From the IMG/VR virus record IMGVR_UViG_3300050581_000203: 64,000 nucleotides of DNA. The stretch is one strand, 5' to 3'. This DNA is from an uncultured virus (IMG/VR IMGVR_UViG_3300050581_000203) (Duplodnaviria > Heunggongvirae > Uroviricota > Caudoviricetes). Made by a program: the position numbers and the translations under genes. The notes beneath the pieces are model-generated. The model did no database searches, was not told where the DNA came from, and saw only the letters and a list, made by a program, of their open reading frames with translations. Positions 9,831 to 37,841 of this stretch are shown piece after piece (position 1 is the first letter of the stretch; each line of letters opens with the position of its first letter).

Positions 9831-9884
9831 AAAAACAAAAACGCGGCTCTCATGAATGAGAACCGCGCGACTATCCGCTTGTGG
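9831..9884 (-). terminator. Late leader element B: conserved motif plus intrinsic terminator directly before the tape measure gene
   Basis: Minus strand ccacAAGCGGATAGTCGCGCGGttctcattcatgagagCCGCG-tttttgttttt-c-ATG. Confidence 0.75.
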
Positions 9885-9890
9885 CTCTAT

Positions 9891-10175
9891 CTATTGGTTT
9901 GCTCTTTCGTTCTTTCGTTCTATGGCGTTCGACACCTCTTCATCGACCGCGAGAAATTCGAGCAGTTTGGTGCGTGGCACCTGCCCACCCGGCAACGTGT
10001 ATCCCAGGTCGTGATAGGTTGCCGCCCCGGACTTCACAAGCCGATACTCCTCAAACAGCTCGCCTGCACGTCTTTCGTATTCCCGATCTTCAGGCGACTT
10101 CAGCTCGTCGGGTCCGCCCTTGATGCCCAGGACGACGGCGTTGTAGCAGAGTCTTTCAATCGTCGCTCTAAAGGG
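9891..10175 (-). CDS. Tail assembly chaperone -1 frameshift extension (gpGT-like), absent from the ORF track
   Basis: The -1 frame is open from the slippery site to TAG at 9891 (FRATIERLCYNAVVLGIKGG...ERANQ*). Confidence 0.75.
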   Translation of the reverse strand, partial: PFRATIERLCYNAVVLGIKGGPDELKSPEDREYERRAGELFEEYRLVKSGAATYHDLGYTLPGGQVPRTKLLEFLAVDEEVSNAIERKNERANQ

Positions 10176-10531
10176 GCATCGGGCGCCAACGCCGCTTCTT
10201 CCTCCGCCTCTTCTTTCTCAAGCTCTTCGATACGCGCGATCAACGCCTTGACGTGACGCGGCGGGATCATCGGGACCAGGCGCGGCGTGACGTTGACCAG
10301 CCGGCACTGTAAACGCATGGTGTTCTGCATCGTCGGATCGGGACGAATCTCGATGACGTCGATGTCGTCGAACCCCTTGCCGTTGCTCAGTACGTCCACC
10401 TGGTGCCCGTCGATGAAGATGCGCACGGCGCTTTGGGAAATTCGGCTCTGTTCCTGCCAGCCCAGGCGCGTTTTGATGACGTATTCCTTGCCGTCGAGGG
10501 TGATGCTTTCAGTATTGGGTTGCTCACTCAT
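10100..10531 (-). CDS. Tail assembly chaperone (gpG-like)
   Basis: Lies between the tail tube and tape measure genes; contains an in-frame C CCT TTA heptamer at 10175-10169. Confidence 0.75.
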   Translation of the reverse strand: MSEQPNTESITLDGKEYVIKTRLGWQEQSRISQSAVRIFIDGHQVDVLSNGKGFDDIDVIEIRPDPTMQNTMRLQCRLVNVTPRLVPMIPPRHVKALIARIEELEKEEAEEEAALAPDAPLERRLKDSATTPSSWASRADPTS

Positions 10532-11565
10532 AGGGTTGCCTCCGAGGTGCGTAGCCATAGGTTAAAGTCCTTGCCGGTGACGGAGTCGATCTGTGCGCTG
10601 CCGGTCACCGTCATCGTTTTGCGCGCCTGGCTGCCGGTCAACGCCGGGAGCTTCTTGGGGTCGAAGAAGACCGACGGCAAGATGATGTGCCCCTCCGACT
10701 TGTAGGTCGTGTTGATCGTAGCGCCCACCATGTCCAGCACCAGCGCCATGGCCGTGCCCGCTCGCGCGGCGTCGTAGAACACGGTCGCATAGTCCGACCA
10801 CGAGATGTCGAAGCTCACGGTAATCTCGCGGTCGCCGGGTTGGGCCTCCTGGATGGTCGGGTCCGGCTTGGCCAGGCCGTAGGCTTCGGCGTCCACCGCG
10901 TTGTTGACCACAATCTGGACGTTGTTGATTTTCGGGTAAGCCGTGCCGCCGGTCAGCGTAATCTTCTTCGTCGTGGCACTATATGCCGGCGTTCCGCCAA
11001 TGCTGACACCGGCGTCGTAGAACATGAGCGGGCGCAAGATGCCCGGGTAGCTGGGCGTGGCGATCACCGCCGGCGACGCCGACGCGCCGTCATAGTCCCA
11101 CACGCCGCCGGCTTTCGCCTCGTCCTTGGCGATGAAATCGAAGGTGTTCTTCACCGCCTCCTTCTGCGCGGCCGCAATCGTCCACTGATTGACCACGGCG
11201 GAAAGGATGTTGATCGCCAGGGCGCCGGTGTACTTCTGCTGGATGCTGATCGGTAGTAGCCCCACGGTGTCGTCGAAACACAAGCCCTGGTCGTAGACGC
11301 CGGTTGCAGTCAGGGTGCCAGCCGTGTCGCGCAGGAACGACGCGAACAACGGGCCGAGTTGGGTCGCCCACCACCAGGTGGACATCGGCCCGGTGACCGG
11401 CTTGGCGCCCAGCACGTTCAGGTAGGTCCCGCGCCCGCCGCCGGTGCTGCGGATCGTAACCTTCTCGCGCTCGCCGCCGATCTCGCTCGATTCGACCGGC
11501 AGCCATTTCGCCGGCGTGACCCACGTCCCAAACGTGGTTTCGCGCGAATAGATGAAATCCGGCAT
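10528..11565 (-). CDS. Major tail tube protein
   Basis: ETTFGT N-terminal motif, GDREITVSF motif, size and synteny. Confidence 0.8.
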   Translation of the reverse strand: MPDFIYSRETTFGTWVTPAKWLPVESSEIGGEREKVTIRSTGGGRGTYLNVLGAKPVTGPMSTWWWATQLGPLFASFLRDTAGTLTATGVYDQGLCFDDTVGLLPISIQQKYTGALAINILSAVVNQWTIAAAQKEAVKNTFDFIAKDEAKAGGVWDYDGASASPAVIATPSYPGILRPLMFYDAGVSIGGTPAYSATTKKITLTGGTAYPKINNVQIVVNNAVDAEAYGLAKPDPTIQEAQPGDREITVSFDISWSDYATVFYDAARAGTAMALVLDMVGATINTTYKSEGHIILPSVFFDPKKLPALTGSQARKTMTVTGSAQIDSVTGKDFNLWLRTSEATL

Positions 11566-11718
11566 TTATGCCTCCTCTACCTTCTCGTAATCGTCTGGAT
11601 AGGCTGCCAGGTACTGATTGGCCAGGTCATCCGGCAATTCGATGATCTCGCCGCAAATGCGACTGCCCCAGCCGGGGATGTACCGGCCGTCGAGGGCGAG
11701 CACGCGAAGCTTCGTCAT
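11566..11718 (-). CDS. Small hypothetical virion protein (50 aa, below the ORF-track cutoff)
   Basis: MTKLRVLALDGRYIPGWG...EKVEEA*; GGAGG RBS; fills the gap with coupled start and stop. Confidence 0.6.
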   Translation of the reverse strand: MTKLRVLALDGRYIPGWGSRICGEIIELPDDLANQYLAAYPDDYEKVEEA

Positions 11719-12239
11719 AGCATCCTCCGTTCCGTTTGAACTTTGAATGGCACGGCGCCATAGTTCTCATAGTTGTTGGTCCGGGCGTCCACGTCCAGCC
11801 CATACGCGACGTCTTCGTCAAGCAGAAACTGGATCACGGTCTCTTCTCGGTCCAGGTCGGTGACGGTGAGACCGCCCATATCGTGATGTGCGCTCTTCTG
11901 TAGCTCGCGCATGACGTAGCAGATCAGCTCCTCGACCAGGTCGTAGCTGGGCACCGTCATGTATTTGTCGCCGACCGGCGTCAGCCAATCGGCGTTAGCT
12001 TGCTTGCCGAGTTGGACGTTCAGCGTAATCAGCCCGCTATATTCGTGTACCGACACGCCGCCCGTCAGTTCGTCGATCAGCATCTCGGTCGCGATGATGA
12101 TCTCCACGAACGGATACGAATCGGCCGGCACCGGCATTGGAACGCCGCCGCGGGTATACAGGTTGATGGGCGCCAGTTCCGGCCGGGCCGCAAGGGCAGT
12201 CTGGATGTAGTCGGCCATCTGGCGCTTGATGAAGCTCAT
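11715..12239 (-). CDS. Putative tail terminator/completion protein
   Basis: Synteny before the tail tube gene; YPFVEI motif. Confidence 0.55.
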   Translation of the reverse strand: MSFIKRQMADYIQTALAARPELAPINLYTRGGVPMPVPADSYPFVEIIIATEMLIDELTGGVSVHEYSGLITLNVQLGKQANADWLTPVGDKYMTVPSYDLVEELICYVMRELQKSAHHDMGGLTVTDLDREETVIQFLLDEDVAYGLDVDARTNNYENYGAVPFKVQTERRML

Positions 12240-12772
12240 TCGATGCCCCCTTCCACGAACAGGTGCTGATGCGCGAACGCCCGGAACTGCTTATAGTCTT
12301 TGTCGGTCAGTTGCAGCATTGGTCGCGCCGGCATCTTGATGGTGCCGTCCTGGTGATAGGCCCAGCGCGGCTTGCTGCCGGCCTTCTGGCCGCTGCGCAC
12401 CCTGTTCACGACGCGCACGCTCTGCTTGTGCGTTTCCCAGTCGAAGCCGGACATCATGGCCCCGCTGCGCTGCAAGATGGGTTTGCCCGGGTAGTGCTTC
12501 GCCTTCCACGCTGCGTACTTTGGCGAGAGCGCCGCCCAGCGCTTGGGCTTGCCGCGGGCGCGGAACTGGGCCGGGATGTGCTGCTGCACCAGGTAGCGCC
12601 CGAACATATCCAGCACCGGTTCCATGTCTTCGGCGCGTGAGCGAAGGTCTTCGATCCGCTGGAGCACGACGTTGGCCTTGCCGCCATCGTTGACGACGAC
12701 GTCGGCGCCAAGCGTTTTGACCACGGTGCGCTTCCCGCGCGCGCTGACATACCTGGGTGAATTGATTGCCAT
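12236..12772 (-). CDS. Phage virion morphogenesis (Mu gpG-like neck) protein
   Basis: WAALSPKY...ILQRSG...AYHQDGT..MPARPML motifs. Confidence 0.8.
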   Translation of the reverse strand: MAINSPRYVSARGKRTVVKTLGADVVVNDGGKANVVLQRIEDLRSRAEDMEPVLDMFGRYLVQQHIPAQFRARGKPKRWAALSPKYAAWKAKHYPGKPILQRSGAMMSGFDWETHKQSVRVVNRVRSGQKAGSKPRWAYHQDGTIKMPARPMLQLTDKDYKQFRAFAHQHLFVEGGIE

Positions 12773-12774
12773 CG

Positions 12775-13182
12775 CTACACCGACCAGTAGTTGTCGCGGC
12801 GGACCATCGGGACGATCTCGAAATCGACGTCGTCCGCCTCGTCTGCCGACGCGCCCGGAAGTTCCTGCTGGCCGTTCTTCAAGCGCGTGAGGAAGGCGCT
12901 ATAGGTGTTCGTCCAATATTCCACGCGCGGCAAGAGGGATTGATCGACCCAACCGGCGTGCCAGGCCGCCACCGCGGCGCCGTATGTCGCATACGTTCGG
13001 AGCATGCTCAACGCTTGAAGGTTCGTGATCGGCACGACGTAGCCGGTCGCCTGCGCGACGCCGTCTATTTCCGCGGAAATATCTTCGATGATGCCGTTCA
13101 CGTCCTCGGCCGTTGGCCGGCTGGTATTGCTGAACGCGACTTGCATCAGGCGTTGGACGTCGTCCAGGGCACAGTAGGCCAT
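12775..13182 (-). CDS. Head-tail adaptor (Mu gp36-like)
   Basis: MAYCALDDV...SAEIDG...GYVVPI pattern. Confidence 0.7.
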   Translation of the reverse strand: MAYCALDDVQRLMQVAFSNTSRPTAEDVNGIIEDISAEIDGVAQATGYVVPITNLQALSMLRTYATYGAAVAAWHAGWVDQSLLPRVEYWTNTYSAFLTRLKNGQQELPGASADEADDVDFEIVPMVRRDNYWSV

Positions 13183-13569
13183 TTAAAGCTTCCCCTGCTG
13201 AAGCCGGCGGAACGGGCTTTGCTCGTCCTCAATCGCCCAGATATGCCCACAGACGCCGCAATGGAAGTGATCCCCATCGAACGTGACCTGGCCCGGCATG
13301 CCGCAACTGATACAACGCGTGGCGGCCGTGGGCTTTGCGATGCCGACCTGGGCAAGCATCTGCTCGATCTCCGTCCCGCTCAGCGCTTCCATCAATTTGT
13401 TAGCCGTCTCGGCAACCGCATCGGCGATTACTTTGGCGCGATCTTCGGTCATTTGGGCTGGCTGTTCCTGCGCGGGTTCAGTGGACTGTTCCGGAGCGGC
13501 CTCTTTGTTTGGTTGCTCCGCTTCGGGCGTTTGCTCGGCGTCACCCATAGGTGTATTTTTCTTCGCCAT
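13183..13569 (-). CDS. Hypothetical protein with a C-terminal zinc ribbon
   Basis: CISCG...CGVCGHIW. Confidence 0.6.
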   Translation of the reverse strand: MAKKNTPMGDAEQTPEAEQPNKEAAPEQSTEPAQEQPAQMTEDRAKVIADAVAETANKLMEALSGTEIEQMLAQVGIAKPTAATRCISCGMPGQVTFDGDHFHCGVCGHIWAIEDEQSPFRRLQQGKL

Positions 13570-13577
13570 TGGTCTCC

Positions 13578-14090
13578 TTACTGGCGGTTAACCCCGCGAA
13601 TCCACACAGTTGCCGTATACACAGAAGAGTTGCTATCTACACTCACCCTGGCACAGCGGCCACCGTTGCTGATTTCACGCATAGCGATCCCATCTCCGCC
13701 AGCGATGTAAAAGGTTCGCGCCAGGCTTGTTTCAACCAGCGTGTTGGTCGCGACATCCGACTCCACGATTGCAGTTTCACTTGCGGTAAACCATGAGATG
13801 GATGGTGCCTGACTGCACGATCCTGGGTATAACGAAAACTGAGGCGTGATCGTCATATTCGTTGTGCCGCTTACGTCTGCGACGGCCTCGATCTGCACCG
13901 CACCGTAAGCCTCAACATTCACCGGCGCGGATGCAACAGTGGTCGTGTATGGTGTGTCGCCTGCAAGCACGGTCTGTGTCATCGTGTATCCGTAGATACC
14001 GGTGCCTGTGACCGACGCGGCCGCAATGCCGCCGGCAAACAGAAGAACGGCAATCGCAATGGGGACCAACAAACGTGAAGCCTTGTGCAT
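13578..14090 (-). CDS. Hypothetical protein with a signal peptide, immediately after the capsid gene
   Basis: MHKASRLLVPIAIAVLLFAGGIAAA start after a GGAG RBS; beta-rich mature part. Confidence 0.6.
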   Translation of the reverse strand: MHKASRLLVPIAIAVLLFAGGIAAASVTGTGIYGYTMTQTVLAGDTPYTTTVASAPVNVEAYGAVQIEAVADVSGTTNMTITPQFSLYPGSCSQAPSISWFTASETAIVESDVATNTLVETSLARTFYIAGGDGIAMREISNGGRCARVSVDSNSSVYTATVWIRGVNRQ

Positions 14091-14159
14091 GTCGATATCT
14101 CCATACGGCGCCGGGGGAAGACCCGGCGCCATCCAATTAGCGTTTTTACTCAACGGAAC

Positions 14160-15398
14160 TTACGAAGCCGACCCATCGCTCCAATAACTAAAGCGCCAAC
14201 CGCCGACGGCGTTCGTGTGGCTGCCGCCCATCACGACGCGGACCTTGTAGTCCACCGAGTCGTTATCGTAGCCGCCCTCCATTGGACTTACGGTCCCGCC
14301 GCCCAGCGCGAGTTGCGCACTGGCGCGCATGAACATCTGCGGCGTGTCGTAGCCGGACAGATAGGCGAATTCGACCGAGTAGCCGTCCGCCGGGTCGGAG
14401 AACAGATACCAGGAGTTCGCGTAGTTGGTGGGGTCCAACAAGCGCAAGTAGGGGTTCAGGCGCACTTGCAGCCGGCTGCGCAATTCCTGGCTGATGATGT
14501 TGGCCGTCGGCAAGTTCGTCTTGTCGGTGCTGCCGGCATAGGCCACGATCAGCGAGTTCAGGACCTGTTCCACCTTGAGCTGCATAGCGCGGGTGCCGAC
14601 CACAATGTAGACCGGATCGTTCATCACCGGCAAACCGTCGGAATCGTCGCCGGGGTACTCGCCCATGGCGCTGATCGCCGTGGCCAGCGCGTCAGCCGAG
14701 AACTTGGCGGTGCCCTTGTTGGAATAGGTGGCGCCGTTGACGCTATGGTTTGTCGCATACAGCGTCGTGTTGGCGGCGAAGAGGGACGTCGCGACGTAAG
14801 CCTCGGTCTGTTGGGCCTGGTAGGAGAAATCGTTCGGAACGTCCGCCAGCGCGCTCAAGTCGTCGTTGATCAGCGCTTCCCAGAGAATGTTGCGCACCGA
14901 GCCGCGCTTTTGCACGCCGAAGCTGTAGTAGGACTCGCTCGGCTTGTCGTTGGTGTACGCCTCGCCTTGCTTGACCACGGGCAGCAGTCCGCGGCCGGGC
15001 GAACACTTGAACCGTTTCACGTCGCGAAAGTCTGCCACCCGGCTGACCTTGATGTAGTCCTGCCAGTTCGGGATAACCGCTTTGTACTTCGCCAATAGGA
15101 CGCGGTCGATGGTGTCGCCGAATAGCAGCGGGAAGTCCGAAGTGGACACGGCTTCGCCCAGGGCGCGATATGCGGAAAGGTCGCCTTCGACCATCGCGCG
15201 AAAGAGCCGGCGCGACGGGCGATGTCCGGCCAGCATATTGCCGTAGGCCTCTTCGAAGTTCGTCAGTACCTTTACGTACTTCTGGCTATCGCGTCGGGCT
15301 TCACTGGTATGCGACAGGTTCCTGCCGTCGCCGGAGAAGATGGCAGCAGTGTCCACTCCCGAGGCCCAGCGGTTGATGACGTCTAGAAACTCACTCAT
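14160..15398 (-). CDS. Major capsid protein (HK97 fold)
   Basis: STSDFPLL, EALINDDL, WYLFSDP...AYLSGYDTP, DSVDYKVR motifs. Confidence 0.88.
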   Translation of the reverse strand: MSEFLDVINRWASGVDTAAIFSGDGRNLSHTSEARRDSQKYVKVLTNFEEAYGNMLAGHRPSRRLFRAMVEGDLSAYRALGEAVSTSDFPLLFGDTIDRVLLAKYKAVIPNWQDYIKVSRVADFRDVKRFKCSPGRGLLPVVKQGEAYTNDKPSESYYSFGVQKRGSVRNILWEALINDDLSALADVPNDFSYQAQQTEAYVATSLFAANTTLYATNHSVNGATYSNKGTAKFSADALATAISAMGEYPGDDSDGLPVMNDPVYIVVGTRAMQLKVEQVLNSLIVAYAGSTDKTNLPTANIISQELRSRLQVRLNPYLRLLDPTNYANSWYLFSDPADGYSVEFAYLSGYDTPQMFMRASAQLALGGGTVSPMEGGYDNDSVDYKVRVVMGGSHTNAVGGWRFSYWSDGSAS

Positions 15399-15448
15399 GA
15401 TGCTTCACTCCAATCGTCTTAGAAAAACGAGCGATGGCCTGAACGGCG

Positions 15449-15805
15449 TTACAGGCCAAACCCCACGCGGATCGTCGTCGTCGCGCCGCTGGTGACGGCG
15501 TCAAGTGCGTAGCCGAACGGTTTACCGTCGGTGGAATCTTTGTTGATCACGCCGGTGTCCAGGTACAGCTTGTCGCCGACCGCGACCGTTGCGTTGCCGG
15601 CGTGGTCTTCGCCCTTCACCGACACCACGCGCACGTGGCGGCACGGAATTGTGCACACCGCATTGCCGGCCGAGTCCCGGTCGGTTTGCAGATAGACCGT
15701 CATGTCGCTCAGCGCGATCACGTCCCCCGATACCTTCCCGGACGGCACCGCCAGATTGAGATTGATGGGCATCGCCTGTTCGATTGCCCCTGGATTCTTC
15801 GCCAT
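15449..15805 (-). CDS. DUF2190-like capsid cement/decoration protein
   Basis: MAKN...VSGDVI...VGDKLY...FGYAL pattern next to the capsid gene. Confidence 0.75.
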   Translation of the reverse strand: MAKNPGAIEQAMPINLNLAVPSGKVSGDVIALSDMTVYLQTDRDSAGNAVCTIPCRHVRVVSVKGEDHAGNATVAVGDKLYLDTGVINKDSTDGKPFGYALDAVTSGATTTIRVGFGL

Positions 15806-15857
15806 GTCTGTGCTCTCCTTCCCAAAACAAAACTACGGATTCACGAATCACCAGGAG

Positions 15858-17837
15858 CTACGCGCGCCCCTGCACCGCCGTCTTCGCCTGGGCTTCCGTT
15901 AACCCCATGCGCATGAATGCCGCGATGCGGCTTTTGGTTAGCTCTTCGCTCGACCGCTCAGCCGGCAGTTCGCCGCCCATCCCCTGGACTCTTCCGGCGG
16001 ACGAGACGACCGAGGCCAGGTACTGGCGCTCCGCCTTGATGGCCTCGCCGATGCTGGCTTGCAGTTGATCCGGGCTCATGGGCGGGTTGTCGCCCTGATC
16101 GGTCGATGCCGGAGTTGCACCGCTACCGGATTGCCACACACCGGAATCGTCCTTGTAGTACCCGGCGTCGAAGACGGCGGCCCAGGCAATGTGCACGGCT
16201 TGCTCCGCTCCCTGCGGCAACGCGTCCGTGTACGCCGATAGCCACAACGCCTGAGCGTCGGCCGGCAACTCGGCGACGTCGGGCGGGATCTCGACGGTTG
16301 GCTGGTCGCCCGGCTCCAGGTCCGTTCCGGTCGGCGCAATCGAGCCGTCCCCGGCCAGGTCGCCTTCTGCTTCGGCAAGTTTCCGGCGCGCTTCCTGGAA
16401 TCTCTTCTTGCCGGTTTCCAGGTCGAGCTTGGGGATGCCGGCTTCCGCGAACCTGGTCACCGCCGGCACCAGCAAGGCCCGGATACGCGCTTGCGACGCC
16501 AATGGGAGCTGCGACTTGCCCAACGCTTCGGCCACGATTTGCTCAGCCTTCAATTTGCGGACCTGAGCACGCCCGGCGCGCACGGCTGCGATCAATTGTT
16601 TGTGCTGCCGCTGCGCTTCTTTGAGTGATACAGGCATAGATGCCTCCTCGTGAATGTTTTGCGCCGCGGGCGTGTCGTTCGTGCCGCGCGCGCTCTCAAC
16701 CAAAGTTGCGTCCCCGCCCGCCGCCGCGCGGGTGACGAAATCCAACGAAACGGCGTCGGTGAAGGCCTCAACGACGAAGTTCCCCGTGGTCGGGTCTTGC
16801 GAACCGCTGCCCGTGGCATTGATGGACATGTCGCCGGCAATGCCCTCGCCCACTTTTGTGAGTAGCGCCTGTTCAGCTTTGCTCACGATGGACTTATGGC
16901 GTAGAGCCGGCTTGCCTTCACGGTTGGTGCCCAAATAGGTCTCTGCGATGCGCCCGACGAGATCCCGCACGCTACGCTCAGGCCGGTCGGCTTCCTCGGT
17001 TTTTGAGGGGTGATCGATGTAGATTGGCTTGCCCTTGAAAATCTCGAGTCCTGATTGGAGGGCCGCTTGGGTGTAATAGTTTCCATTCAAGCTCAAGCCC
17101 TCAGCGACAATGACGCCATCGATCTTTCCGGTGTCGTCAACATACGCTTCGCGAAGCACCGTCTCACGCAGCTCGCGCGTGCCTAGCGCCGACGCGCGTG
17201 CGGCTTCCTGGATTGGCTTACCGGAAGCGATGGGTTGTGCCGGCGGAGCCGAGGCGGTGATACCCGAAATAGTTGCTTCATCGTCTGGATCGACGATCTG
17301 AGGAACGTCCGGCATGACCGTGGCACCGGAAGGAGCGACGACCACCGCCGGATCGGGGGCTGTGTCCGGATTAACCGGCGCACTGCGCAGGCACAATAGA
17401 AGCGGGTCGCTATCGATGGTGGCGTTGAGGGTGTCAAGCGCCACGCCAATGGCATGCGATAAGGCAATACGCGAATCCTGGCTAATCGCGCCGTCAGCCA
17501 ACAGATCGTCCGCGTACATCGTGAATTCCCGGTGAGTGTTTGCCACCAGGTAGTCCGCGATGTTCTGTGCGCCAAACGCCTCGTGTACCACTCCGGCAAT
17601 GGTTGAGCCCAGGTCAGGCACGCCGGCGGCCGGCGCTTGCATGGTTGGTGCCAATTCGCTGATGTCGTCGCTGTTCCCGTAGAGCCCAACGATCATGCGG
17701 ATTGCCTGTTGCATGATGCGGAATTTCTTCTTCAGCAGTTCATGCTTCGTCTCCAGCGCTTCATACTCGGCGCGGGTGTGCTTGGCGCCGGCCTCGGCAA
17801 GCGTGTTATCGGTCGTGGTTGAAGTTGAATTTAGCAT
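15858..17837 (-). CDS. Prohead protease/scaffold with an embedded ChaB-like domain
   Basis: GLSLNGNYY, YIDHP, RSVRDLVG, MSINATG, SLDFVTRAAAGG protease motifs; LPADAQALW...IAWAAV...YYKDDSGVW. Confidence 0.8.
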   Translation of the reverse strand: MLNSTSTTTDNTLAEAGAKHTRAEYEALETKHELLKKKFRIMQQAIRMIVGLYGNSDDISELAPTMQAPAAGVPDLGSTIAGVVHEAFGAQNIADYLVANTHREFTMYADDLLADGAISQDSRIALSHAIGVALDTLNATIDSDPLLLCLRSAPVNPDTAPDPAVVVAPSGATVMPDVPQIVDPDDEATISGITASAPPAQPIASGKPIQEAARASALGTRELRETVLREAYVDDTGKIDGVIVAEGLSLNGNYYTQAALQSGLEIFKGKPIYIDHPSKTEEADRPERSVRDLVGRIAETYLGTNREGKPALRHKSIVSKAEQALLTKVGEGIAGDMSINATGSGSQDPTTGNFVVEAFTDAVSLDFVTRAAAGGDATLVESARGTNDTPAAQNIHEEASMPVSLKEAQRQHKQLIAAVRAGRAQVRKLKAEQIVAEALGKSQLPLASQARIRALLVPAVTRFAEAGIPKLDLETGKKRFQEARRKLAEAEGDLAGDGSIAPTGTDLEPGDQPTVEIPPDVAELPADAQALWLSAYTDALPQGAEQAVHIAWAAVFDAGYYKDDSGVWQSGSGATPASTDQGDNPPMSPDQLQASIGEAIKAERQYLASVVSSAGRVQGMGGELPAERSSEELTKSRIAAFMRMGLTEAQAKTAVQGRA

Positions 17838-17841
17838 CGTG

Positions 17842-17936
17842 AAAAATAAAAAAAACGCGGGCCTCAAAAGAGGCACCGCGTGACTTTCCACTTATGCGGA
17901 ATTGATGCGACCTATACGCCGCATCCCGTATTCAAT
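17842..17936 (-). terminator. Late leader element C: TTGAATA, small hairpin, conserved motif and terminator before the protease/capsid genes
   Basis: Minus strand ttgaatac-gggatgcggcgtataggtcgcatc-aattccgcatAAGTGGAAAGTCACGCGGtgcctcttttgaggcCCGCGT followed by a T-tract. Confidence 0.75.
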
Positions 17937-17974
17937 TGATTGGATTATACGTCAACGCAGAACGCCTGATCTGG

Positions 17975-18175
17975 TCATTTTGGCCGATTGGGGCCATGCG
18001 CAACGGCGGCCGCGATGACGAGCGTCAGCGTCGTCATTGCCAGCAGCACGATGCCACTGGCGATAACGCTTTGGATGCTCAACGCGACGTGCCAGGTTGC
18101 CGCAACGACGCTCACAAAAGCCAAAATCAGGATGACGTCCTTGACGCGATTGGGATTCGATTCAGTCGGTTCCAT
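17975..18175 (-). CDS. Small two-helix membrane protein
   Basis: Two hydrophobic segments; start 1 nt after the portal stop. Confidence 0.55.
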   Translation of the reverse strand: MEPTESNPNRVKDVILILAFVSVVAATWHVALSIQSVIASGIVLLAMTTLTLVIAAAVAHGPNRPK

Positions 18176-18176
18176 C

Positions 18177-20186: not shown

Positions 20187-20197
20187 TCGTCTTCACC

Positions 20198-21577
20198 TCA
20201 ATACCCTATATCGACGCGGATCGACTCGTCGTAGAGGAGCGCCGCGCGCTCTTCCACGGCCAGGCCGTCCACGAACGCCACGGCGTAGCGCATGGCGTCC
20301 ATGCCGTGGTCGTACTCCTTCACCGGCTCTTCCTTGTCGTTCTTCGGCCACACGTAGGCGTCGAACTCCTCGACGATGGAGGCCGGCTTCTTGCCCAGCG
20401 CCGGGTCGCGCTCGACGAGCGAATCGCGCAGCACGAACAGGCGGGGCTTGCCGTCGCCGGCCTTGCGCAAACGATCCTGCACCGCTTCGATGCCGGGCTT
20501 GATCGCTTTCCACGCCGGCACGGTGGGGATGCCGGCATCGTCCAACGTGGCGCGGTCTTCGGCATCGTGATCGGAAACCGCCGCGCTGATCCGCTCGCCG
20601 GCGCTCAAGGCTTTGATCTGCTGCGCGTGATCCCTGACCAGCCGATGCGTCATGTAAATCTCGCGATACAGGTACATCCGGCCGTCGCCGTCGATGGCCC
20701 ACCATTGCGCCGTGAACGGATGGGTGTAGCCGAAGTCGATGGAAAGAATGCGACGCCACGCGCGCGGGACCTCGAAACGGTCCACCAGGTGCAGCGTCTG
20801 GTCGAAGTCGTAGACCGTGCCCTCGGCCTGCACCCAGCGCCCGAAGCGCAGCCGCTGCAAGCGCGCGCCGGTCAGCGCGTTGAGCCTGGCGATGTAGTTG
20901 AGGCCCTCCGGCGTCCAATGCCGGCCGTCGAACAGGCGCGGGTTGTCTTCGTGGCGGCTCTCCAGCATCAGCGTCTTGCCCGCAAGGGCGCGTTGCTTCA
21001 GCCAGTGGGTGGGCCGATCGGGGTTCGTGTCGGCGATGAGCTGCTGGTAGGGCATCCGGCCGTTGCGCAGGCGCGTGGTCAGCGATTCCCAATCGTCCTC
21101 GTTGAGTTCTATGGCCTCCTGAACGAAAGCCATGTCGTATTCGGTGGACATGATCTTGGACGCCTTGTCCATCCCGCCGATCACGATGACGCTGCCGTTG
21201 CTATATGGGTACGACTGGCGATGGCTCCGCTGGCCACCGTGCTCCAGGATCGGGCTGGATAGGCCGATCACGTCGCGCTCGAACGTGACCATTGCCGACT
21301 CGGTGAGCGATTCGCGCGTCTTGCGCACGATGAGCAGGCGCGAACGCGGGTAGCGCAGCGCGGCGTCGTGCAGCTTTTCAAGGCACGCGCGGCTCTTGCC
21401 GGTGCCGGCCGGGCCGCTGAGGACGATCTCAGGCGCTGTGCTCGTCATCAGTTTCGCCGCCGCTCCCCTCGGGATATAGCGTATCTGTGCCAGCAGGCGC
21501 GTCACCTCGGCGCGCTCGCGCGGCGTCAAATATGGCCATAAGCTTTGTAATTCGTTCGGCGTCTGAAAGCTCTGCAT
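20198..21577 (-). CDS. terL: Terminase large subunit (PBSX-like)
   Basis: SGPAGTGKS Walker A, FVQEAIE Walker B, DTNP, IDFGYTHP, DHGMDAMRY. Confidence 0.93.
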   Translation of the reverse strand: MQSFQTPNELQSLWPYLTPRERAEVTRLLAQIRYIPRGAAAKLMTSTAPEIVLSGPAGTGKSRACLEKLHDAALRYPRSRLLIVRKTRESLTESAMVTFERDVIGLSSPILEHGGQRSHRQSYPYSNGSVIVIGGMDKASKIMSTEYDMAFVQEAIELNEDDWESLTTRLRNGRMPYQQLIADTNPDRPTHWLKQRALAGKTLMLESRHEDNPRLFDGRHWTPEGLNYIARLNALTGARLQRLRFGRWVQAEGTVYDFDQTLHLVDRFEVPRAWRRILSIDFGYTHPFTAQWWAIDGDGRMYLYREIYMTHRLVRDHAQQIKALSAGERISAAVSDHDAEDRATLDDAGIPTVPAWKAIKPGIEAVQDRLRKAGDGKPRLFVLRDSLVERDPALGKKPASIVEEFDAYVWPKNDKEEPVKEYDHGMDAMRYAVAFVDGLAVEERAALLYDESIRVDIGY

Positions 21578-22046
21578 GCTCCTTCTCGCCCGTCGGATCG
21601 GTGGGCGCCACTTTGGTCGGCGCGTTCAAACCCATGATGGCGCGTATGTCGGTCAACGCCTGCATGGCCGTCGCCAGGTAGCGCGGATCGGCGTTCTGAT
21701 CCTTCGACTTCATCTGCGTCTCGTCGTCAGCAACCTTGCGGGTCTTGCGCGTGAGCTTGCGGGCCTCCTTCGCCGGCTGCTTGCTGGCGTTCCAGGCCTG
21801 CATGGCTTCGTCGGCGATGAACGTGAGCTGCGAGACCTGTTCGGCCTTCATGGCCGCGACCTCGGACTGCATAGTGTCCAGGATGCGCCTGGATACCCGC
21901 GCCAGCATCTTGGTCACCGTCGTGCGATCCACGCCCAACTCGGCCGCGATGCGCTCGTGCGTCCAGAACTTCTGGCGCAATTCCCAGGCGCGCCGCTCGC
22001 GCTCTCGCGCCACTTCCTTGGGCACGCTTCCCTTGCGCATATACAA
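21429..22046 (-). CDS. terS: Terminase small subunit (N-terminal HTH)
   Basis: THERIAAELGVDRTTV HTH; GLNAPTKVAPTDPTG; overlaps terL. Confidence 0.75.
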   Translation of the reverse strand: MYMRKGSVPKEVARERERRAWELRQKFWTHERIAAELGVDRTTVTKMLARVSRRILDTMQSEVAAMKAEQVSQLTFIADEAMQAWNASKQPAKEARKLTRKTRKVADDETQMKSKDQNADPRYLATAMQALTDIRAIMGLNAPTKVAPTDPTGEKEHAELSDAERITKLMAIFDAARARRGDAPAGTDTLYPEGSGGETDDEHSA

Positions 22047-22171
22047 CCTACACGAAGAAACTATTGCGAAATCCGCATACCCCTAAGGGGGAATGTGAAC
22101 GCTTGAGGTGAACAAATCGCCGGGTTCAGAGAGTCCTTCACCTTGACTTCCGGCGCCACCCGATCAAACAT

Positions 22172-22399
22172 GTGGCCATGCAAAGAACCACAACGACTAC
22201 CCGCGACGCCAAACAAGCCTATGCCAATGAGCTTGAGGCCATGCGCAGCAAGCTCGAACAGATCAACAATCAACTGCTCGAACTGGTCGGAGATGGCAGC
22301 ATCTCGGAGCGGGTGAACTGGGCTAACGTGGGCGACTTGACGCATCTGAACCATCTGCTGGACGAAGCCATCGCATTTCACGTGCCGCATATCGAATAA
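22172..22399 (+). CDS. Small hypothetical protein antisense to the late operon
   Basis: 75-aa helical ORF (VNWANVGDL) in the gap between the methyltransferase and terS; TTGACT upstream. Confidence 0.55.
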   Translation: MAMQRTTTTTRDAKQAYANELEAMRSKLEQINNQLLELVGDGSISERVNWANVGDLTHLNHLLDEAIAFHVPHIE

Positions 22400-22404
22400 C
22401 CTCA

Positions 22405-23679
22405 CTATTGAGCCAGGTGCGGCTCCAGCCCCATCCCGGCCAGGCGCTCCAGGATCACCGCCACATATTGCGGCTGCAGCTCCAGCCCATACACCAGCCG
22501 GCCCAGCCGCTCGCCCGCCACGTGCTGGCTGCCGCTCCCGCTAAACGGCTCGTAGCAGACGTCGCCGGCGACCGTGTGCTGGCGCATGGGCACTTCGAAG
22601 AGCTGCACGGGTTTGGAAGTGGGATGGAGCGTCGTCTGGCCTGGTACGGTGGTAGGCACGCTCCATACGCTGGGCGGATAGTCTTCCGCCACCCGCCTCG
22701 GCTTCTTGCCCTTCACCCAGCCGAAGAAGCACGGCTCGTGCTGCCACATGTACCAGGAACGCGTCAGCACCGGGCGGTCCTTCACCCAGATGATTTGCTG
22801 GTGGACGAACGCGCCGTGGCGCGTCCACACCGCCTCGAGCATGGCCTGATTGCGGCTGGCGTGCCAGCAATACCAGGCGGCATCTTCGCGGATGGCATGC
22901 TGCACCGCCGCCGAGATGAACCCCTCGTAGAGGGCTTCGCCCTGCTTGGCGTCGTCCCAATCGTGATAGCTGTCGCTCCAGTCCTTGTTGGCGTCGGGTT
23001 TGCTCCACTTATGCGGGTGATTATTGCCGTCGTAATCGACCAGGTAGGGCGGATCGGTGGCGAACAGCGCTGCGCGCTCGCCGTTCATCAACCGGCGCAC
23101 GTCGTCGGCGTTGGTCGCATCCCCGCACAGCAACCGGTGCGACTTGCCGGCTACGGACTTACTCGGGATCTCCCAAAGTTGGCCGAGCGTGGTTTGCCAT
23201 TTGGCTTGCAGCGCCTCCGCGGCGTCTTCCTGCGGGCCGGGGTCCTCCGCGTCGTTGCCCGCCTCAAGCGCCGGCGTCACCTGGGCCAGCAGGTCGTCGA
23301 ACTCTTGCTCGGACCAGCCCAACGTGGCGACGTCGCCGGCCTGCTGCAGCAGGTTGGCGAGCGTCTCTTCGTCCCACTCGCCCAACTCCGACGAGCGGTT
23401 ATCGACGAGCGCCAGGCGCGTGGCCTGCAAGTCGTCGCAGTCCAGCCGCACCGCGTCGCATTCCGGCCAGAGCAACTGGCGCATCGCCTCGTATGCGCCG
23501 TTGCCGACCAGGATGCGCCCGGTGGCGCGCTGCACGACCAGCGGGCGATACTGGCCGTGCTCCAGGAGAGACGCCTTGATGACGTCGATATTGCGCTGCG
23601 GATGGCGCTTGGCGTTCGCCGCATCGGGGTGCAGCTCCGCCAGCGGGACGCGTTCGATCTGAATGCCTTCGATCTTCAT
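22405..23679 (-). CDS. ParB-like N-terminal domain fused to an N4/N6 DNA methyltransferase
   Basis: NAKRH...ILVGNG...DNR; TDPPY, HPTSKPV, EPFSGSGS. Confidence 0.9.
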   Translation of the reverse strand: MKIEGIQIERVPLAELHPDAANAKRHPQRNIDVIKASLLEHGQYRPLVVQRATGRILVGNGAYEAMRQLLWPECDAVRLDCDDLQATRLALVDNRSSELGEWDEETLANLLQQAGDVATLGWSEQEFDDLLAQVTPALEAGNDAEDPGPQEDAAEALQAKWQTTLGQLWEIPSKSVAGKSHRLLCGDATNADDVRRLMNGERAALFATDPPYLVDYDGNNHPHKWSKPDANKDWSDSYHDWDDAKQGEALYEGFISAAVQHAIREDAAWYCWHASRNQAMLEAVWTRHGAFVHQQIIWVKDRPVLTRSWYMWQHEPCFFGWVKGKKPRRVAEDYPPSVWSVPTTVPGQTTLHPTSKPVQLFEVPMRQHTVAGDVCYEPFSGSGSQHVAGERLGRLVYGLELQPQYVAVILERLAGMGLEPHLAQ

Positions 23680-23691
23680 GGTTGCGCCTGC

Positions 23692-26214
23692 CTATACCTT
23701 CCGCGACCACTTGGTCACGTCCACTTCAGGAGACGCCAGGTATTCCCCGATCCCATAGCCGGGCGTCCACTGCGGGTCATCCATGGCCAGGGTGAAGATG
23801 GTGCCGCCCAGATACGGCGTGGGATAGCTCACGCCGTCGATCACGAGCGGCTCGCACACCAGGTCGAGCGCCCGGATGACCCAACGCTGGCAGCCGGCCG
23901 GCCCCAGCGCCTGCGCTACCATGCCGCCCTTTCCGCCTTCGTCGCAGCCGGTTTCCGAGCTGAAGATCTCTGAAACGTTTGGGTCGAGTTCGATCCCCAT
24001 TTCGGGCCAGAAACAGAACAAGTAGCGGGTGAGAAACCAGTCGCACGGACGGATCGTGCGCGTCGTGCTGGGGAGCGCCGAGGCCAGGGCTTTGCTCGTG
24101 TCGGGCACCATCCACGTCACCTCGTGCTCGTCGCGCCCGGCTTTGGCGCGAACCACCTTGACGGGGCCGGGGTACATCACGAGAGCGGGGACGTCGCTCG
24201 TGGCGCTGGCCTTCGCGCCGAGCGCGCTCGCGGCGACGGCGGGCACGGTCATGTCCGGATAGAGCCAGTTGGGCGTCGGCACGTAGTTGTGCCAGTCGAA
24301 GCGGATTTCGGCTCGCGTGCCGTCCTTGGTGCCCTCGATGGTCTGGTAGTTATACAAACCCTTGAAGAAGTCGCGCAGGCCTTTGCGCACTTCCTCGTCC
24401 GTGACGTCGGGGCAACCCATCGGCATGCAACAGATCGCAAATCGGCGATACCCGGCGGCGTAGGCGATCTTCATCGTGTCGATGTACTTCTGGGCGATGC
24501 GCTTCAGCCAGGCGTAGGCGGTCTCGTCGCCGCGCCGGCCGAATCCCCAATCGCCTTCGTTGTTGACGATCAGCCCGACGTTGGCTTTGACGTCGTCGGG
24601 CAAGGCCTGCTGCAGGGCGACGATCTGCGACGGGGACCAGTCGGAATTCTCCTTCCACGTGCGCTGCCACACGTCGTGCCCGTCGCGCGCCAGGCGCGCC
24701 GCCTCGTCCGCGTTCATGCAAGTGAACATGGTCTTGCCGCCGTTCAGCCGCGAGCGCAGCGGCTCGCCGGTCGAATGCAGCGTGTGCGCCCCGATCACGC
24801 GCATCGTCGTCAGGTTGATCGTGGTGCGCCTGGTGATCGAAAAGTTCGCGGCGCCGGCGTCTTCGTAATACTCGGCGACGAACGTGTGCCGCCCGGCGGC
24901 CAGCGTCCTGGTCACGACGTAGGTGGCGACCTGCGGCACCCACTTGTCCAGCGCCATCTCGCCGTCGACGTAGAAGCGCACGCCGTCGTCGGCGCCGATG
25001 CTCCATTGGTAGGCGGCAGCGGGCAACGTCGCTACTTGCGTGAAGCGCGCGCTGAAGTGGTCGCTAGGGACGAGTGAATCGGGGCTGCCGGTGCCCAGTT
25101 GCATCGACAGGTCCGGCCCCGCATAGGTCTTGCTGACGATGGGATCGCCCTGCAGGGATTCGTTCGCCCAGAACTGGGCGGCCCAATCGCCTTCCGCCAC
25201 GGCCGGCGCGACGGTGATCGCGATCTCTTTCGCGACGTACTCGCCCGCTACCAGGCACTTGAGCGCGTAGGTCGTCGAGGCCTGCGGCGTCAGCTTGACG
25301 ACGACCGGTTGCACCGACCCGTCCAGCGGGTGATCGACGCCGTCGTAGACCAGCCAGGCGCCGTCCACGTGCTCGAAGTGCATGCTGAGCGTCACGGCGA
25401 CGCCGGCGGCGATACTGGTCGCGTCGGCCGAGAATTCGATGATCGGGTCCGGCGCGATCTCCGCCACCGTCAGCGGCGCCGGGACGTCTACATAGGGCTG
25501 GCTGCTGCCGGTGATGCGCAGGCCGGCCAGGTCGCCCTGGATGGTGAGCGGCAGCGGCAGGCTGGTTACCTTGCCGTCGCCCGAGGTGATTTGTACGTTG
25601 GTCATGGTTTCACGCTTGAACAAGGTGCTAAGCGGGACGCTCAGCACGTCTAAATCGATGTAGGTGGAGGCGGCGCCGTAGCGCTGGCCGTCGCCGCTGG
25701 AGCTGTGCTGCCAGATCGTGTAGGTCGCCCAGGGCTTGGGGATGACGAGGCTGGCGGCGGGGACGTATTCGCCGAGCCAAAGCAGGTATTCCGACAGCCA
25801 AGGCGCATTGCCCACGTAGGGCATATACCAGGCGCCGGTGTACACGACGGGTTTGCGCCCGGCGATGCGCTCCACCTCCGCCAGGCAGGTTTGCAGGCTC
25901 TCGCGCCAGGTTGCGCTCCACGCCTGCTTGGGAGATTCGACGTCGACCGCCGGCGGAAGTTCGCCGTAGTCGTCGCCCAGGCGCGCAAACAGCGCACGCG
26001 CCTGAAGCAAGGGGTTGATCTGCGGGTAGAAGGCCAGGTAGGGCCCGCGCGGCAATAGCCCCCTGGACGCGGACCAGTTGGCGTCGATGCGCGTGTCGGG
26101 GAGGGTGCCGTCGGAAGCGCGAATCCAGGCGAACTGTGCCTGCGCGGCGAGCGTCCGCCAGTTGATGCTCCCCTGGTATTGCGAGACGTCCACCCCATTT
26201 TCGTAGCTATCCAT
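23692..26214 (-). CDS. Multidomain endolysin: GH25 muramidase, Ig-like domain, PA14 domain and an uncharacterised C-terminal domain
   Basis: GVDVSQYQG, AVDVE, IDLD (GH25); FSARF...ADDGVRFYVDG...EYYE (PA14). Confidence 0.85.
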   Translation of the reverse strand: MDSYENGVDVSQYQGSINWRTLAAQAQFAWIRASDGTLPDTRIDANWSASRGLLPRGPYLAFYPQINPLLQARALFARLGDDYGELPPAVDVESPKQAWSATWRESLQTCLAEVERIAGRKPVVYTGAWYMPYVGNAPWLSEYLLWLGEYVPAASLVIPKPWATYTIWQHSSSGDGQRYGAASTYIDLDVLSVPLSTLFKRETMTNVQITSGDGKVTSLPLPLTIQGDLAGLRITGSSQPYVDVPAPLTVAEIAPDPIIEFSADATSIAAGVAVTLSMHFEHVDGAWLVYDGVDHPLDGSVQPVVVKLTPQASTTYALKCLVAGEYVAKEIAITVAPAVAEGDWAAQFWANESLQGDPIVSKTYAGPDLSMQLGTGSPDSLVPSDHFSARFTQVATLPAAAYQWSIGADDGVRFYVDGEMALDKWVPQVATYVVTRTLAAGRHTFVAEYYEDAGAANFSITRRTTINLTTMRVIGAHTLHSTGEPLRSRLNGGKTMFTCMNADEAARLARDGHDVWQRTWKENSDWSPSQIVALQQALPDDVKANVGLIVNNEGDWGFGRRGDETAYAWLKRIAQKYIDTMKIAYAAGYRRFAICCMPMGCPDVTDEEVRKGLRDFFKGLYNYQTIEGTKDGTRAEIRFDWHNYVPTPNWLYPDMTVPAVAASALGAKASATSDVPALVMYPGPVKVVRAKAGRDEHEVTWMVPDTSKALASALPSTTRTIRPCDWFLTRYLFCFWPEMGIELDPNVSEIFSSETGCDEGGKGGMVAQALGPAGCQRWVIRALDLVCEPLVIDGVSYPTPYLGGTIFTLAMDDPQWTPGYGIGEYLASPEVDVTKWSRKV

Positions 26215-26519
26215 TACTTCTCCTTATCTGGCATGGGCACCGGCACGCCGCCCAGGCTGACCACCTGGTCGCACAACAGCTTGACCCAGGCGCGCAGTTG
26301 CCGGTTCTCGGCCTTCACTTCGATGATTTCCGTCTGCTGGCCGTCGATTTGCTTCTGCATGCTCTCCATCTCTTTGTGAGCACGCTCCAGGACCCGTTCG
26401 GTGATCTGGCTTTCCAGGTCCTCGCGTTCGGCATTCGTCTTGCGCCTGGTCGATAGGGCGATGAGGAGCGCGGTAATTGCGGAGATAAAGCCCAGCGCAT
26501 CGGCTATGGTGATTTGCAT
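26214..26519 (-). CDS. Lysis-region membrane protein (1 TM plus coiled coil)
   Basis: Start MQITIADALG; hydrophobic N-terminus followed by heptads. Confidence 0.65.
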   Translation of the reverse strand: MQITIADALGFISAITALLIALSTRRKTNAEREDLESQITERVLERAHKEMESMQKQIDGQQTEIIEVKAENRQLRAWVKLLCDQVVSLGGVPVPMPDKEK

Positions 26520-26521
26520 AT

Positions 26522-26791
26522 CTACTGATCCAAAATGGCATAGCCTGCGAGAATGCCAAGCAGGGCCATCAAAGCCGGCCACAGAAGCGTTCCCCCCACA
26601 GGCATGAACTCAACGACATGAAACAGCGACACGATCATGACGACGGCCACGTAGAAGGTGACGCCGGCGGCAATGAAGCGCCAGGCGCGCATGGCGTCTT
26701 TCCGGCGTAGCGCGCTGCGCAGGTTCAATGCCGCCGTGACGATCCCCAGCGCGGCCGTCAGTAGCTGGATCAGATCGGGCGTCATGGCCAT
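26522..26791 (-). CDS. Lysis-region 3-TM membrane protein
   Basis: MAMTPDLIQLL...; three hydrophobic segments; TAATG coupling. Confidence 0.6.
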   Translation of the reverse strand: MAMTPDLIQLLTAALGIVTAALNLRSALRRKDAMRAWRFIAAGVTFYVAVVMIVSLFHVVEFMPVGGTLLWPALMALLGILAGYAILDQ

Positions 26792-27279
26792 TACGGCTGC
26801 GGGCCGTCCGGACTGCCCGTGACGTCGCCGATCGGCACTGGGATGGGGAACCCGAGGTCTTCCAGGTTCTGGACGATGGCGCTGGCGATCTGCGCTTCGA
26901 TGAACGCCCAGGCGGAGATGGCCACATAGCCAAACTCGATGGCGTCGCCGAAGAGCTTGAACACGTAATAGACGAGCACGTAGGGGATCAGGTCGAACAG
27001 AAAATCCCCTAGGCGCTGAAAGGTGAAATTGCGTTGCTTGACCGCGAGCGCCACAGCCAGCGCCGTGTTGGCGATCACGCTGAGCGCGATGACCTTCACA
27101 CCGTCGTATGACCAGATACTGAGCACAATTGCTTTCAGTGTGGCCAGCACGGCGCTCGCGTCGGCCGAGGGCGTGCCGGGCGGGGCTGCCAATGCCGGCT
27201 GGGCGAAGGCGAGCGACAGAACCGCGGCGACGAACAGGAAGAGACTGGGCTTGCGAACGAATTGGAACTTGCGAAACAT
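26791..27279 (-). CDS. Putative holin
   Basis: Multi-TM protein, SAIVQNLEDLGFPIP holin-like end, GGAGG RBS. Confidence 0.6.
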   Translation of the reverse strand: MFRKFQFVRKPSLFLFVAAVLSLAFAQPALAAPPGTPSADASAVLATLKAIVLSIWSYDGVKVIALSVIANTALAVALAVKQRNFTFQRLGDFLFDLIPYVLVYYVFKLFGDAIEFGYVAISAWAFIEAQIASAIVQNLEDLGFPIPVPIGDVTGSPDGPQP

Positions 27280-27292
27280 AGTGCACCTCCGA

Positions 27293-27385
27293 GAAAAATA
27301 AAAAGCGCGGCATCTCAAGTGAGAATGCCGCGCGACTACCCGCTTTTGGCGTTTGGCTGGGCTATGTCCAGCCGTTATTCAAATG
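27293..27385 (-). terminator. Late leader element A: TTGAATA, small hairpin, conserved motif and terminator before the lysis/packaging genes
   Basis: Minus strand ttgaataac-ggctggacatagcccagcc-aaacgccaaAAGCGGGTAGTCGCGCGGcattctcacttgagatgCCGCGC-tttttattttt. Confidence 0.75.
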
Positions 27386-27396
27386 TAACGAGCCGG

Positions 27397-27675
27397 TCAG
27401 GTTGGCGGGAGATTGACCCCCAGGAAGTTGAGCGTGTCGGTGATGGCATCGCTACTCGTGGCGATGTCCTTCTGCGCATTGCGGACCGTGATGCGGCCCT
27501 CGTCCTCGTTGATATTGAACGTCAGTTCATAGTGCGTGACTCCCCCCTTGTGGTTCCGCTGGCGCATGCGGCGCCAGACGGCCATGAAATTCGCCTCCAG
27601 GTTATCCTCCAGGCGAACGAGGCACATACTGCTCCTTACGGATTGTTGAGAATCTGAAACTGTTGTTCGTGCCAT
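27397..27675 (-). CDS. Small hypothetical protein (92 aa); candidate late-gene regulator
   Basis: ORF between leader elements D and A with its own sigma70-type promoter. Confidence 0.6.
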   Translation of the reverse strand: MARTTVSDSQQSVRSSMCLVRLEDNLEANFMAVWRRMRQRNHKGGVTHYELTFNINEDEGRITVRNAQKDIATSSDAITDTLNFLGVNLPPT

Positions 27676-27681
27676 ATCACC

Positions 27682-27710
27682 ATTCTATGAAACGGGTGTT
27701 CTAGCGTCAA
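27682..27710 (-). promoter_or_regulatory. Sigma70-type promoter with an overlapping LexA-box-like site
   Basis: TTGACG-17 bp-TAGAAT; spacer contains AGAAC-ACCC-GTTTC; ATG lies 6 nt after the -10 box (leaderless). Confidence 0.65.
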
Positions 27711-27714
27711 TCGG

Positions 27715-27762
27715 CCAACAAAAAAGGCGCACGGTTCGAACCGCGCGCCTTTCCGCTTCTGG
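27715..27762 (-). terminator. Late leader element D: conserved motif plus terminator
   Basis: Minus strand ccagAAGCGGAAAGGCGCGCGGttcgaaCCGTGCGCC-ttttttgtt. Confidence 0.7.
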
Positions 27763-27867
27763 TGAGGGTATTGTACCGCCGGCACCTGATATCTTCGCAT
27801 TCGGCACATGGCCAGCATATAATATTTGTGTACTCACTCAATTTGGTTAGCCTCACAGGGGATTCAC

Positions 27868-37811: not shown

Positions 37812-37841
37812 TTTTGTCACCTCGCAATATAGCTACAGACA

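Follow-up and report, generated by a model that had tools for sequence, protein, structure and literature searches.

A 64,000-nucleotide stretch of the viral record IMGVR_UViG_3300050581_000203 (hereafter the window) contains, from about position 1 to 52122, a siphovirus-like prophage of a Chloroflexota bacterium, whose genes for tail, capsid, portal, terminase and endolysin occupy the minus strand up to 27300. We found that this late region carries four copies of an RNA element in which a small hairpin and an intrinsic terminator share bases, and that two of the copies bracket a 92-aa open reading frame (ORF). The element is real, specific to this prophage and conserved with its partner gene; the repetition, the two exclusive folds, the covariation, the conservation of the cassette and the LexA boxes of the ORF promoter were all computed. 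That the hairpins act as antiterminators operated by some protein appears quite likely. The sequence relationships described below also favour, with less assurance, site-by-site antitermination of the ribonucleic antiterminator (RAT) or ANTAR type, with the 92-aa protein as the probable factor.

The repeated hairpin and its terminators

The 18-nt motif reported in the initial annotation was found again at all four minus-strand positions (27758-27741, 27345-27328, 17893-17876 and 9880-9863, here copies A, B, C and D), preceded each time by CAN, and folding confirmed a GC stem and a U-tract directly after each copy. Gene scans agreed with the neighbours named there, i.e., the 92-aa ORF, lysis/terminase, head protease/capsid and tape measure genes. 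The motif makes up the core of an RNA hairpin of ~25 nt, which is composed of a lower stem (CC/GG plus a variable extension), an A-rich 4x2 internal loop (ANRA/GC), an upper stem GYG/CRC and the apical loop GRWAGK. The 3' half of this hairpin is also the 5' arm of the terminator, and as these bases are shared, the two folds are mutually exclusive. The conserved sequence beside the stem, which had been read as the binding site of a trans-acting factor, is kept as a candidate site; it is not a linear box alone, since its hairpin fold competes with that of the terminator.

Folds and alignments were evaluated on six copies, the four of the window and two from a second species of the host genus (genome G015, described below). 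With the nascent RNA cut 4 nt past the motif, unconstrained folding gave the antiterminator fold in 5/6 copies, and the consensus fold of the copies gave the same hairpin. In the alignment of 35 columns (A4), 48 of 60 cells pair, a value equalled by none of 500 shuffles (slid controls, 23-50%). Five pairs were changed on both sides, including GCG/CGC to GTG/CAC, and the variable positions of the lower stem pair in 15/24 cases (p ~0.02). G-U pairs occur in the hairpin, and its lower stem covaries. Fourteen motif positions are invariant in all six copies, including G at position 1 and A at position 4 of the loop, while the terminator stems and loops have diverged.

A search for hairpins followed by U-tracts on the late strand between 1 and 28000 returned 13 candidates, the four most stable of which are the motif terminators (-18.3 to -20.8 kcal/mol; next candidate, -17.4 kcal/mol). 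These could be ordinary terminators copied from one ancestor within the phage, with leakiness that tunes expression and a shared 5' sequence that is only a relic: copies B and D are alike in the stem too (76% over 38 nt), and chance alternative folds are common among terminators. We regard this as very improbable, as the stems and loops have diverged while 14 positions stayed invariant in six copies from two genomes whose ORFs are 44% identical, and as essential genes would be blocked by stems this stable (-18 to -21 kcal/mol) followed by U-tracts.

Copy A forms its antiterminator hairpin at 27740..27763 (nascent fold, -6.0 kcal/mol; alignment A4), overlapping terminator A at 27720..27749 (stem 27749-27726 plus U-tract). 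Upstream lies the -10 box TACAAT of a putative late promoter, P_A (27770..27775, no good -35 box), whose predicted +1, 27763, is the first base of the antiterminator lower stem. The hairpin of copy B (27327..27350, -8.8 kcal/mol) overlaps terminator B (27297..27333), which precedes the genes for a membrane protein, endolysin, terminase and portal; at best a weak TACATT could serve as its -10 box. The antiterminator of copy C (17876..17899), with the lower stem CCGC/GCGG in a shifted register, precedes terminator C (17848..17880) and the genes for head protease/scaffold, capsid and tail tube; here the RNA can also adopt a different hairpin that does not preclude the terminator. Its putative promoter, P_C, has the -10 box TATAAT (17944..17949) and no -35 box at the canonical spacing. 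Copy D (hairpin 9859..9888, -10.4 kcal/mol; terminator D 9832..9868) stands ahead of the tape measure gene and the tail genes that follow it, 10 nt past the stop codon of a second, gpGT-like frame; the 130 nt upstream contain no -10-like hexamer. All these features are on the minus strand.

The description of the copies as leaders therefore holds for A and C, which have a clear -10 box, but not every copy is a promoter leader, B having a weak box and D none. Since copy D is promoterless and lies just after a stop codon, expression of the tail genes needs read-through. TTGAATA with a small hairpin, noted earlier upstream of two copies, was seen before B and C, and is absent before copy B of G015. 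The motif might instead be a DNA site, i.e., an operator or activator site, next to separate terminators that are constitutive or leaky. GYG-N6-CRC is also a short DNA palindrome, and the -10 boxes of A and C, lacking a good -35 box, may need an activator. We give this explanation little credence: each of the six copies points the same way, is fused with the 5' arm of a terminator and lies downstream of the -10 box, copy D has no promoter, and the G-U pairs and the covarying lower stem fit RNA.

In the region of copy D, a tail assembly chaperone gene with an overlapping second frame (9891-10558, minus strand) resembles the gpG/gpGT frameshifting arrangement.

The element is confined to this prophage within the host genome (5,556,982 bases, 98% complete). 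All four exact matches to the motif in these 5.56 Mb lie in the prophage, and the two extra matches among the six at one mismatch lack a hairpin plus U-tract; therefore, the motif is not a host repeat, a possibility that the initial annotation had raised, and which is excluded. None of the host terminators contains the motif at up to 2 mismatches. In the window, a 21-nt consensus allowing up to 3 mismatches had 4 matches against 0.22 expected, and 0/100 shuffles reached 4, in a test that is partly circular because the consensus was built from the same copies; a de novo repeat search recovered the family as well (4 copies of 25 nt with 76-88% identity to the reference). Within the window, the covariance model of the element (R1) detected no copy that stands apart from a terminator (best other match, 17 bits). 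Among 151 genomes of the class, its best outside match scored 29 bits, and the 11 best outside matches lacked a terminator. Pattern scans of viral sequences returned 1 locus and 6 loci, of which the single one and 2/6 are this prophage's own sequence and the other 4 lack the lower stem. A scan of metagenomes returned 72 loci, none with a second copy and none convincing by eye. A related contig covers 26900-28000 (from 4/9 runs) with 115 substitutions, whose listed sites end at 27174, short of the motif.

No known RNA family in Rfam matched the window at the gathering score; copies A, B and C had only matches with E of 0.1-9.6, far under the cut-off, and copy D was scanned at the gathering score only. 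With terminators within genes that need to be expressed, an element specific to the prophage and no Rfam match, the antitermination reading of the initial annotation was borne out as a candidate. Riboswitches and antisense attenuators follow the same logic of exclusive folds, and a small molecule or an antisense RNA could throw the switch rather than a protein. This seems the most remote of the explanations weighed, as an element of ~25 nt whose upper stem has 3 bp would make a small aptamer, nothing in Rfam matches, no complementary copy of the motif was found on the opposite strand, and a conserved basic protein travels with the element.

Motif-like structures occur elsewhere. In an unrelated phage (L025:5001 and L056:6001), a motif-like hairpin opens a true terminator before portal/head-like genes, in single copy and without the lower stem, and chance likeness is possible. 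In a second prophage-like region (genome G000, contig C61, ~20946, plus strand), the terminator after a capsid-like gene opens with GCG-GAGAGG-CGC, like the upper hairpin, again without the lower stem, and 3 kb upstream there is a LexA box.

The 92-aa ORF, its LexA boxes and a second genome

The 92-aa ORF (27397..27675, minus strand), a candidate RNA-binding antiterminator, lies between copies A and B and has its own consensus promoter, P_B (27682..27710, minus strand; TTGACG-17-TAGAAT, 10/12 consensus bases), 3' of terminator A. As its ATG is 6 nt past the P_B -10 box, the mRNA is probably leaderless. Met17 is a second possible start; synonymous changes that preserve QQSVR directly ahead of Met17, at the loose end of a contig, hint that the long form may be the one translated. 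Homologue searches returned 4 members among 1.84 billion representatives and 5 members among 5.8 billion proteins. The five homologues are 41-92% identical, with 27 invariant columns that include W34, R35, R38, R40 and N41 and positions in V46-L51 and V64-D70. The predicted structure (predicted local distance difference test score, 70) consists of a long basic helix (residues 24-43, WRxxRxRN), a beta-hairpin (strands 46-56 and 61-71) and a short helix. No match to the family or fold was found in Pfam, PHROGs, NCBIfam, Atlas or fold searches (best Z 4.4, noise level), and no relatives in viral contigs, JGI metagenomes or 50,697 phage records. Genome contigs yielded one locus, that of G015, and 401 genomes of the phylum yielded one weak match over 35 residues.

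Two LexA boxes accompany P_B on the minus strand: box 1 (27689..27703), between the -35 and -10 boxes, has one change relative to the box of host lexA and recA, and box 2 (27656..27669), in the first codons of the ORF, matches the host-type box. They resemble the boxes at host lexA and recA, TAGAAC-N4-GTTC, a type reported for Gram-positive bacteria (PMC3323433). Tandem pairs are rare among the 201 LexA boxes in the genome (4 versus 0.35 expected); P_B has one of them and lexA's own promoter another, so that the layout of P_B is like that of host lexA. These boxes suggest that in this prophage, the ORF would be released from LexA repression by DNA damage.

The motif was also searched at one mismatch in 50 genomes of the family. 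The 12 matches in 10 other genomes are about the level of a reversed-pattern control, and just 2 of them, both in G015, precede a hairpin plus U-tract. The G015 contig (2994 nt, too short to reach the late genes) contains the cassette motif-terminator, ORF homologue (44% identical), motif-terminator, as A and B here, with motif copies of 0 and 1 mismatch that are 435 nt apart (A and B, 413 nt). In both genomes, the first motif follows TACAAT at a distance of 11 nt. The DNA flanking the cassette differs between them on both sides. Moreover, the ORF profile matches 2/50 family genomes, the same two that hold the motif with its terminator.

From this architecture we infer actual termination, read-through, RNA binding by the ORF product and SOS induction, which would work as follows. 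The nascent ~25-nt hairpin would form first and hold the 5' arm of the terminator. Left unbound, it would be displaced by the far more stable terminator and transcription would stop, so that in the lysogen the genes for lysis, head and tail would stay silent; bound by the phage protein, it would block formation of the terminator at that site only. In the lysogen, LexA would keep P_B off, and transcripts from P_A, P_C or upstream would stop at A-D. Upon DNA damage the ORF product would be made and would bind each nascent hairpin, so that the lysis, packaging, head and tail genes are read, and read-through at A could add feedback.

The hairpins could also be protein-operated antiterminators opened by another phage or host protein, the 92-aa ORF being a LexA-controlled antirepressor. 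The repressor-like gene of the prophage (41921..42391, minus strand) has a helix-turn-helix only, with no peptidase domain found in domain scans, which invites an antirepressor role for a small LexA-controlled gene; none of the 30 ORFs scanned against PHROGs belongs to an antirepressor family, the host encodes one ANTAR protein, and LexA-controlled antirepressors are known (PMC3121763). We nevertheless consider this arrangement unlikely. In both genomes a motif copy flanks the ORF on either side, whereas G015 has not kept the LexA boxes. As for a host protein, the loop fails the ANTAR rule, the host lacks CAT and DUF2292 domains, and no host terminator comes within 2 mismatches of the motif.

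Related phages, weight of the evidence and the prophage setting

To the comparison we added 52 viral loci with related capsids, none of which matched model R1 (best E 0.43) or the ORF profile; five whole records of capsid relatives, of which just one is over 90% complete, likewise contained neither ORF nor motif. In several of the 52 loci, a strong terminator lies a few kb ahead of the capsid gene and is taken by its position as the junction of copy C. The 5' arm of this terminator is overlapped by another hairpin, with the lower stem GYCY/AGGC, an A-rich internal loop, the upper stem CGG/CCG or AUCG/CGAU and the loop A(G/A)GAA. A DUF2292-like protein of 46-58 aa is encoded in 10/52 loci, and in 8/10 a hairpin over a terminator follows 77-917 nt downstream; the 42 loci without such an ORF gave one loose match to the element, with no terminator hairpin. 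Assignment to DUF2292 is by weak matches of 4/6 of these small proteins, all below the cut-off. In L164 (capsid 51% identical), a 63-aa ORF ends 25 nt short of a terminator that is overlapped by a hairpin.

No member of the ORF family (0/6) matched PF10055 (DUF2292/YezD) at E <=10, no DUF2292-like gene was found in this genome, and the host has no DUF2292 match. Homology of the ORF to the DUF2292-like proteins or to the 63-aa ORF of L164 was not supported (hhalign probability 0.14, 0.16 and 0.34%, from shallow profiles). The layout thus recurs in related phages with different parts, and both descent and convergence are possible. Our widest reading, offered tentatively, is that late genes may be switched on neither by a processive factor (N, Q) nor by a promoter activator, but by a small RNA-binding protein of a new family that opens each late terminator separately, with host LexA wiring it to DNA damage. 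Protein and hairpin may have co-evolved and diverged as one pair within a larger, so far unrecognised superfamily to which the DUF2292/YezD-like phage proteins also belong.

The closest capsid relative (L163, 54%) has a very stable terminator before its portal gene (~3925, plus strand); an alternative hairpin overlaps this terminator, and an 87-aa ORF lies just upstream.

Several observations weigh against antitermination by the 92-aa protein. When the RNA was cut 7 nt past the motif, just 4/6 copies kept the antiterminator fold, and copy C pairs in another, shifted register. The terminator state exceeds the antiterminator state in stability by 10.1-18.0 kcal/mol, compared with a gap of 6.6 kcal/mol reported for LicT/RAT (PMC5393181), so that protein binding must act kinetically. 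Some upstream fold sequesters the 5' arm in 34/127 host terminators (27%), and thus an alternative fold alone is weak evidence. The covariation comes from six copies of two genomes with a structure derived from the same sequences, and its score is inflated both by their relatedness and by the origin of the structure. The context of the ORF likewise comes from two genomes, this prophage and G015. Its promoter in G015 has no LexA box at <=1 mismatch and the related contig has an indel in LexA box 2, so SOS control may be lineage-specific. The repressor with a helix-turn-helix only fits an antirepressor. Among the DUF2292-like loci, 6/8 positive ones built the profile, and of the other 4 loci, 2 have the element. 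The weight rests on the same geometry repeated with covariation, rather than on energy.

Beyond 27300, the prophage encodes morons, replication genes, the repressor-like gene and a serine recombinase. Cargo of low GC content lies between the early arms (37925-40771): a YafQ-type toxin-antitoxin pair, DUF5131 and a GMT-like protein. A 31-nt sequence common to two early promoters (37846-37876, minus strand, and 42396-42426, plus strand; 90% identical, inverted) is probably a repressor-controlled promoter/operator, and the promoter of the G015 ORF homologue starts with the same 12 nt. A 75-aa ORF (37593-37820, minus strand), by eye resembling a ribbon-helix-helix regulator and with no PHROGs match, heads the rightward early unit. 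The early transcripts share a two-copy element, A6, stem, ATCTG(T)GACTAGCAGGGG, stem (37561-37578, minus strand, and 42452-42468, plus strand), which has just these two copies genome-wide. On the opposite strand each copy is a hairpin plus U-tract; the element is possibly an early RNA control site or a pair of antisense terminators.

A second integrated element adjoins the prophage (51986-62907), with two more serine recombinases, a tyrosine recombinase, a primase and an AAA helicase. The segment 12473-23231 of the window matches three contigs of the host assembly (C24, C92 and C184) at 100% identity, so the two assemblies are unequal in contiguity.

Comparison with known systems

Our comparison agrees with the statement in the initial annotation that the motif does not match nut, qut or put, and extends it to RAT and ANTAR; it is none of these. 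In the literature covered, which did not include subscription journals, we found no account of hairpin-gated phage late terminators or of DUF2292 as an antiterminator. If the proposed mechanism is true, site-specific RNA-binding antitermination, known from bacterial metabolic operons, joins the switches of phage late genes, and a new small RNA-binding protein is paired with a 25-nt target. A protein of 76-92 residues with a gated terminator of ~50 nt would make a compact inducible part.

In the DUF2292/YezD-like phages, as here, a small protein precedes the head-gene junction, followed by a hairpin that overlaps a terminator and has an A-rich internal loop, a purine-rich apical loop and a GCC/GGC-like lower stem. 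The hairpin sequence is different, with its A(G/A)GAA loop, and there is no profile similarity to the ORF; the order of helix and then beta-hairpin was read from the 92-aa ORF model alone. The parallel layout suggests a testable function for a widespread uncharacterised family, and if the superfamily reading is true, DUF2292/YezD gains a role.

According to PMC3121763, Gifsy prophages, whose repressor has no cleavage domain, carry small antirepressor genes (GfoA and GfhA) that LexA controls directly and that lie beyond the immunity region. The 92-aa ORF is alike in being a small, probably LexA-controlled gene outside the immunity region of a prophage with a non-cleavable repressor, and differs in having no family match and in being bracketed by an RNA motif.

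RAT, as described in PMC5393181 and PMC12591593, is a short hairpin with an internal loop, held by a protein, whose 3' end lies over the 5' arm of an intrinsic terminator. The motif hairpin overlaps the terminator 5' arm in the same way as the RAT of BglG/SacY/LicT. However, in RAT two internal loops are conserved and the apical loop varies, whereas here there is one internal loop and the apical loop is conserved; RAT/CAT governs sugar uptake, here phage late genes are concerned. CAT (PF03123) had no match in the host genome, while the control matched in 4/14 genomes, and none in the ORF.

The eut operon of Enterococcus faecalis, controlled by EutV/ANTAR, has four internal terminators with a shared sequence and a mini-hairpin with a six-base loop (PMC3369931). 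Likewise, there are four terminators in one gene cluster here, with a shared sequence over the 5' part of the terminator and a six-base loop. ANTAR targets are dual hairpins with A at loop position 1 and G at position 4 (PMC3369931); here the loop has G1 and A4 in 6/6 copies, and the ORF has no ANTAR domain. Visual inspection showed an additional upstream hairpin, with AUAG in its loop, at B and C but at neither A nor D. There is one ANTAR gene in the host, and none among the prophage ORFs scanned.

Processive antitermination, including conAn of pLS20, involves a single loading and is independent of terminator configuration (PMC8191782). N/nut, Q/qut, put and conAn share with the present case the late or long operons of mobile elements, several terminators and a small factor encoded where the operon begins (PMC8191782). 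The prophage ORFs scanned included no N, Q or NusG-like family. The basic helix and the purine-rich loop found here resemble N and boxB. Processive systems load once; here, in contrast, a competing hairpin is present at every terminator.

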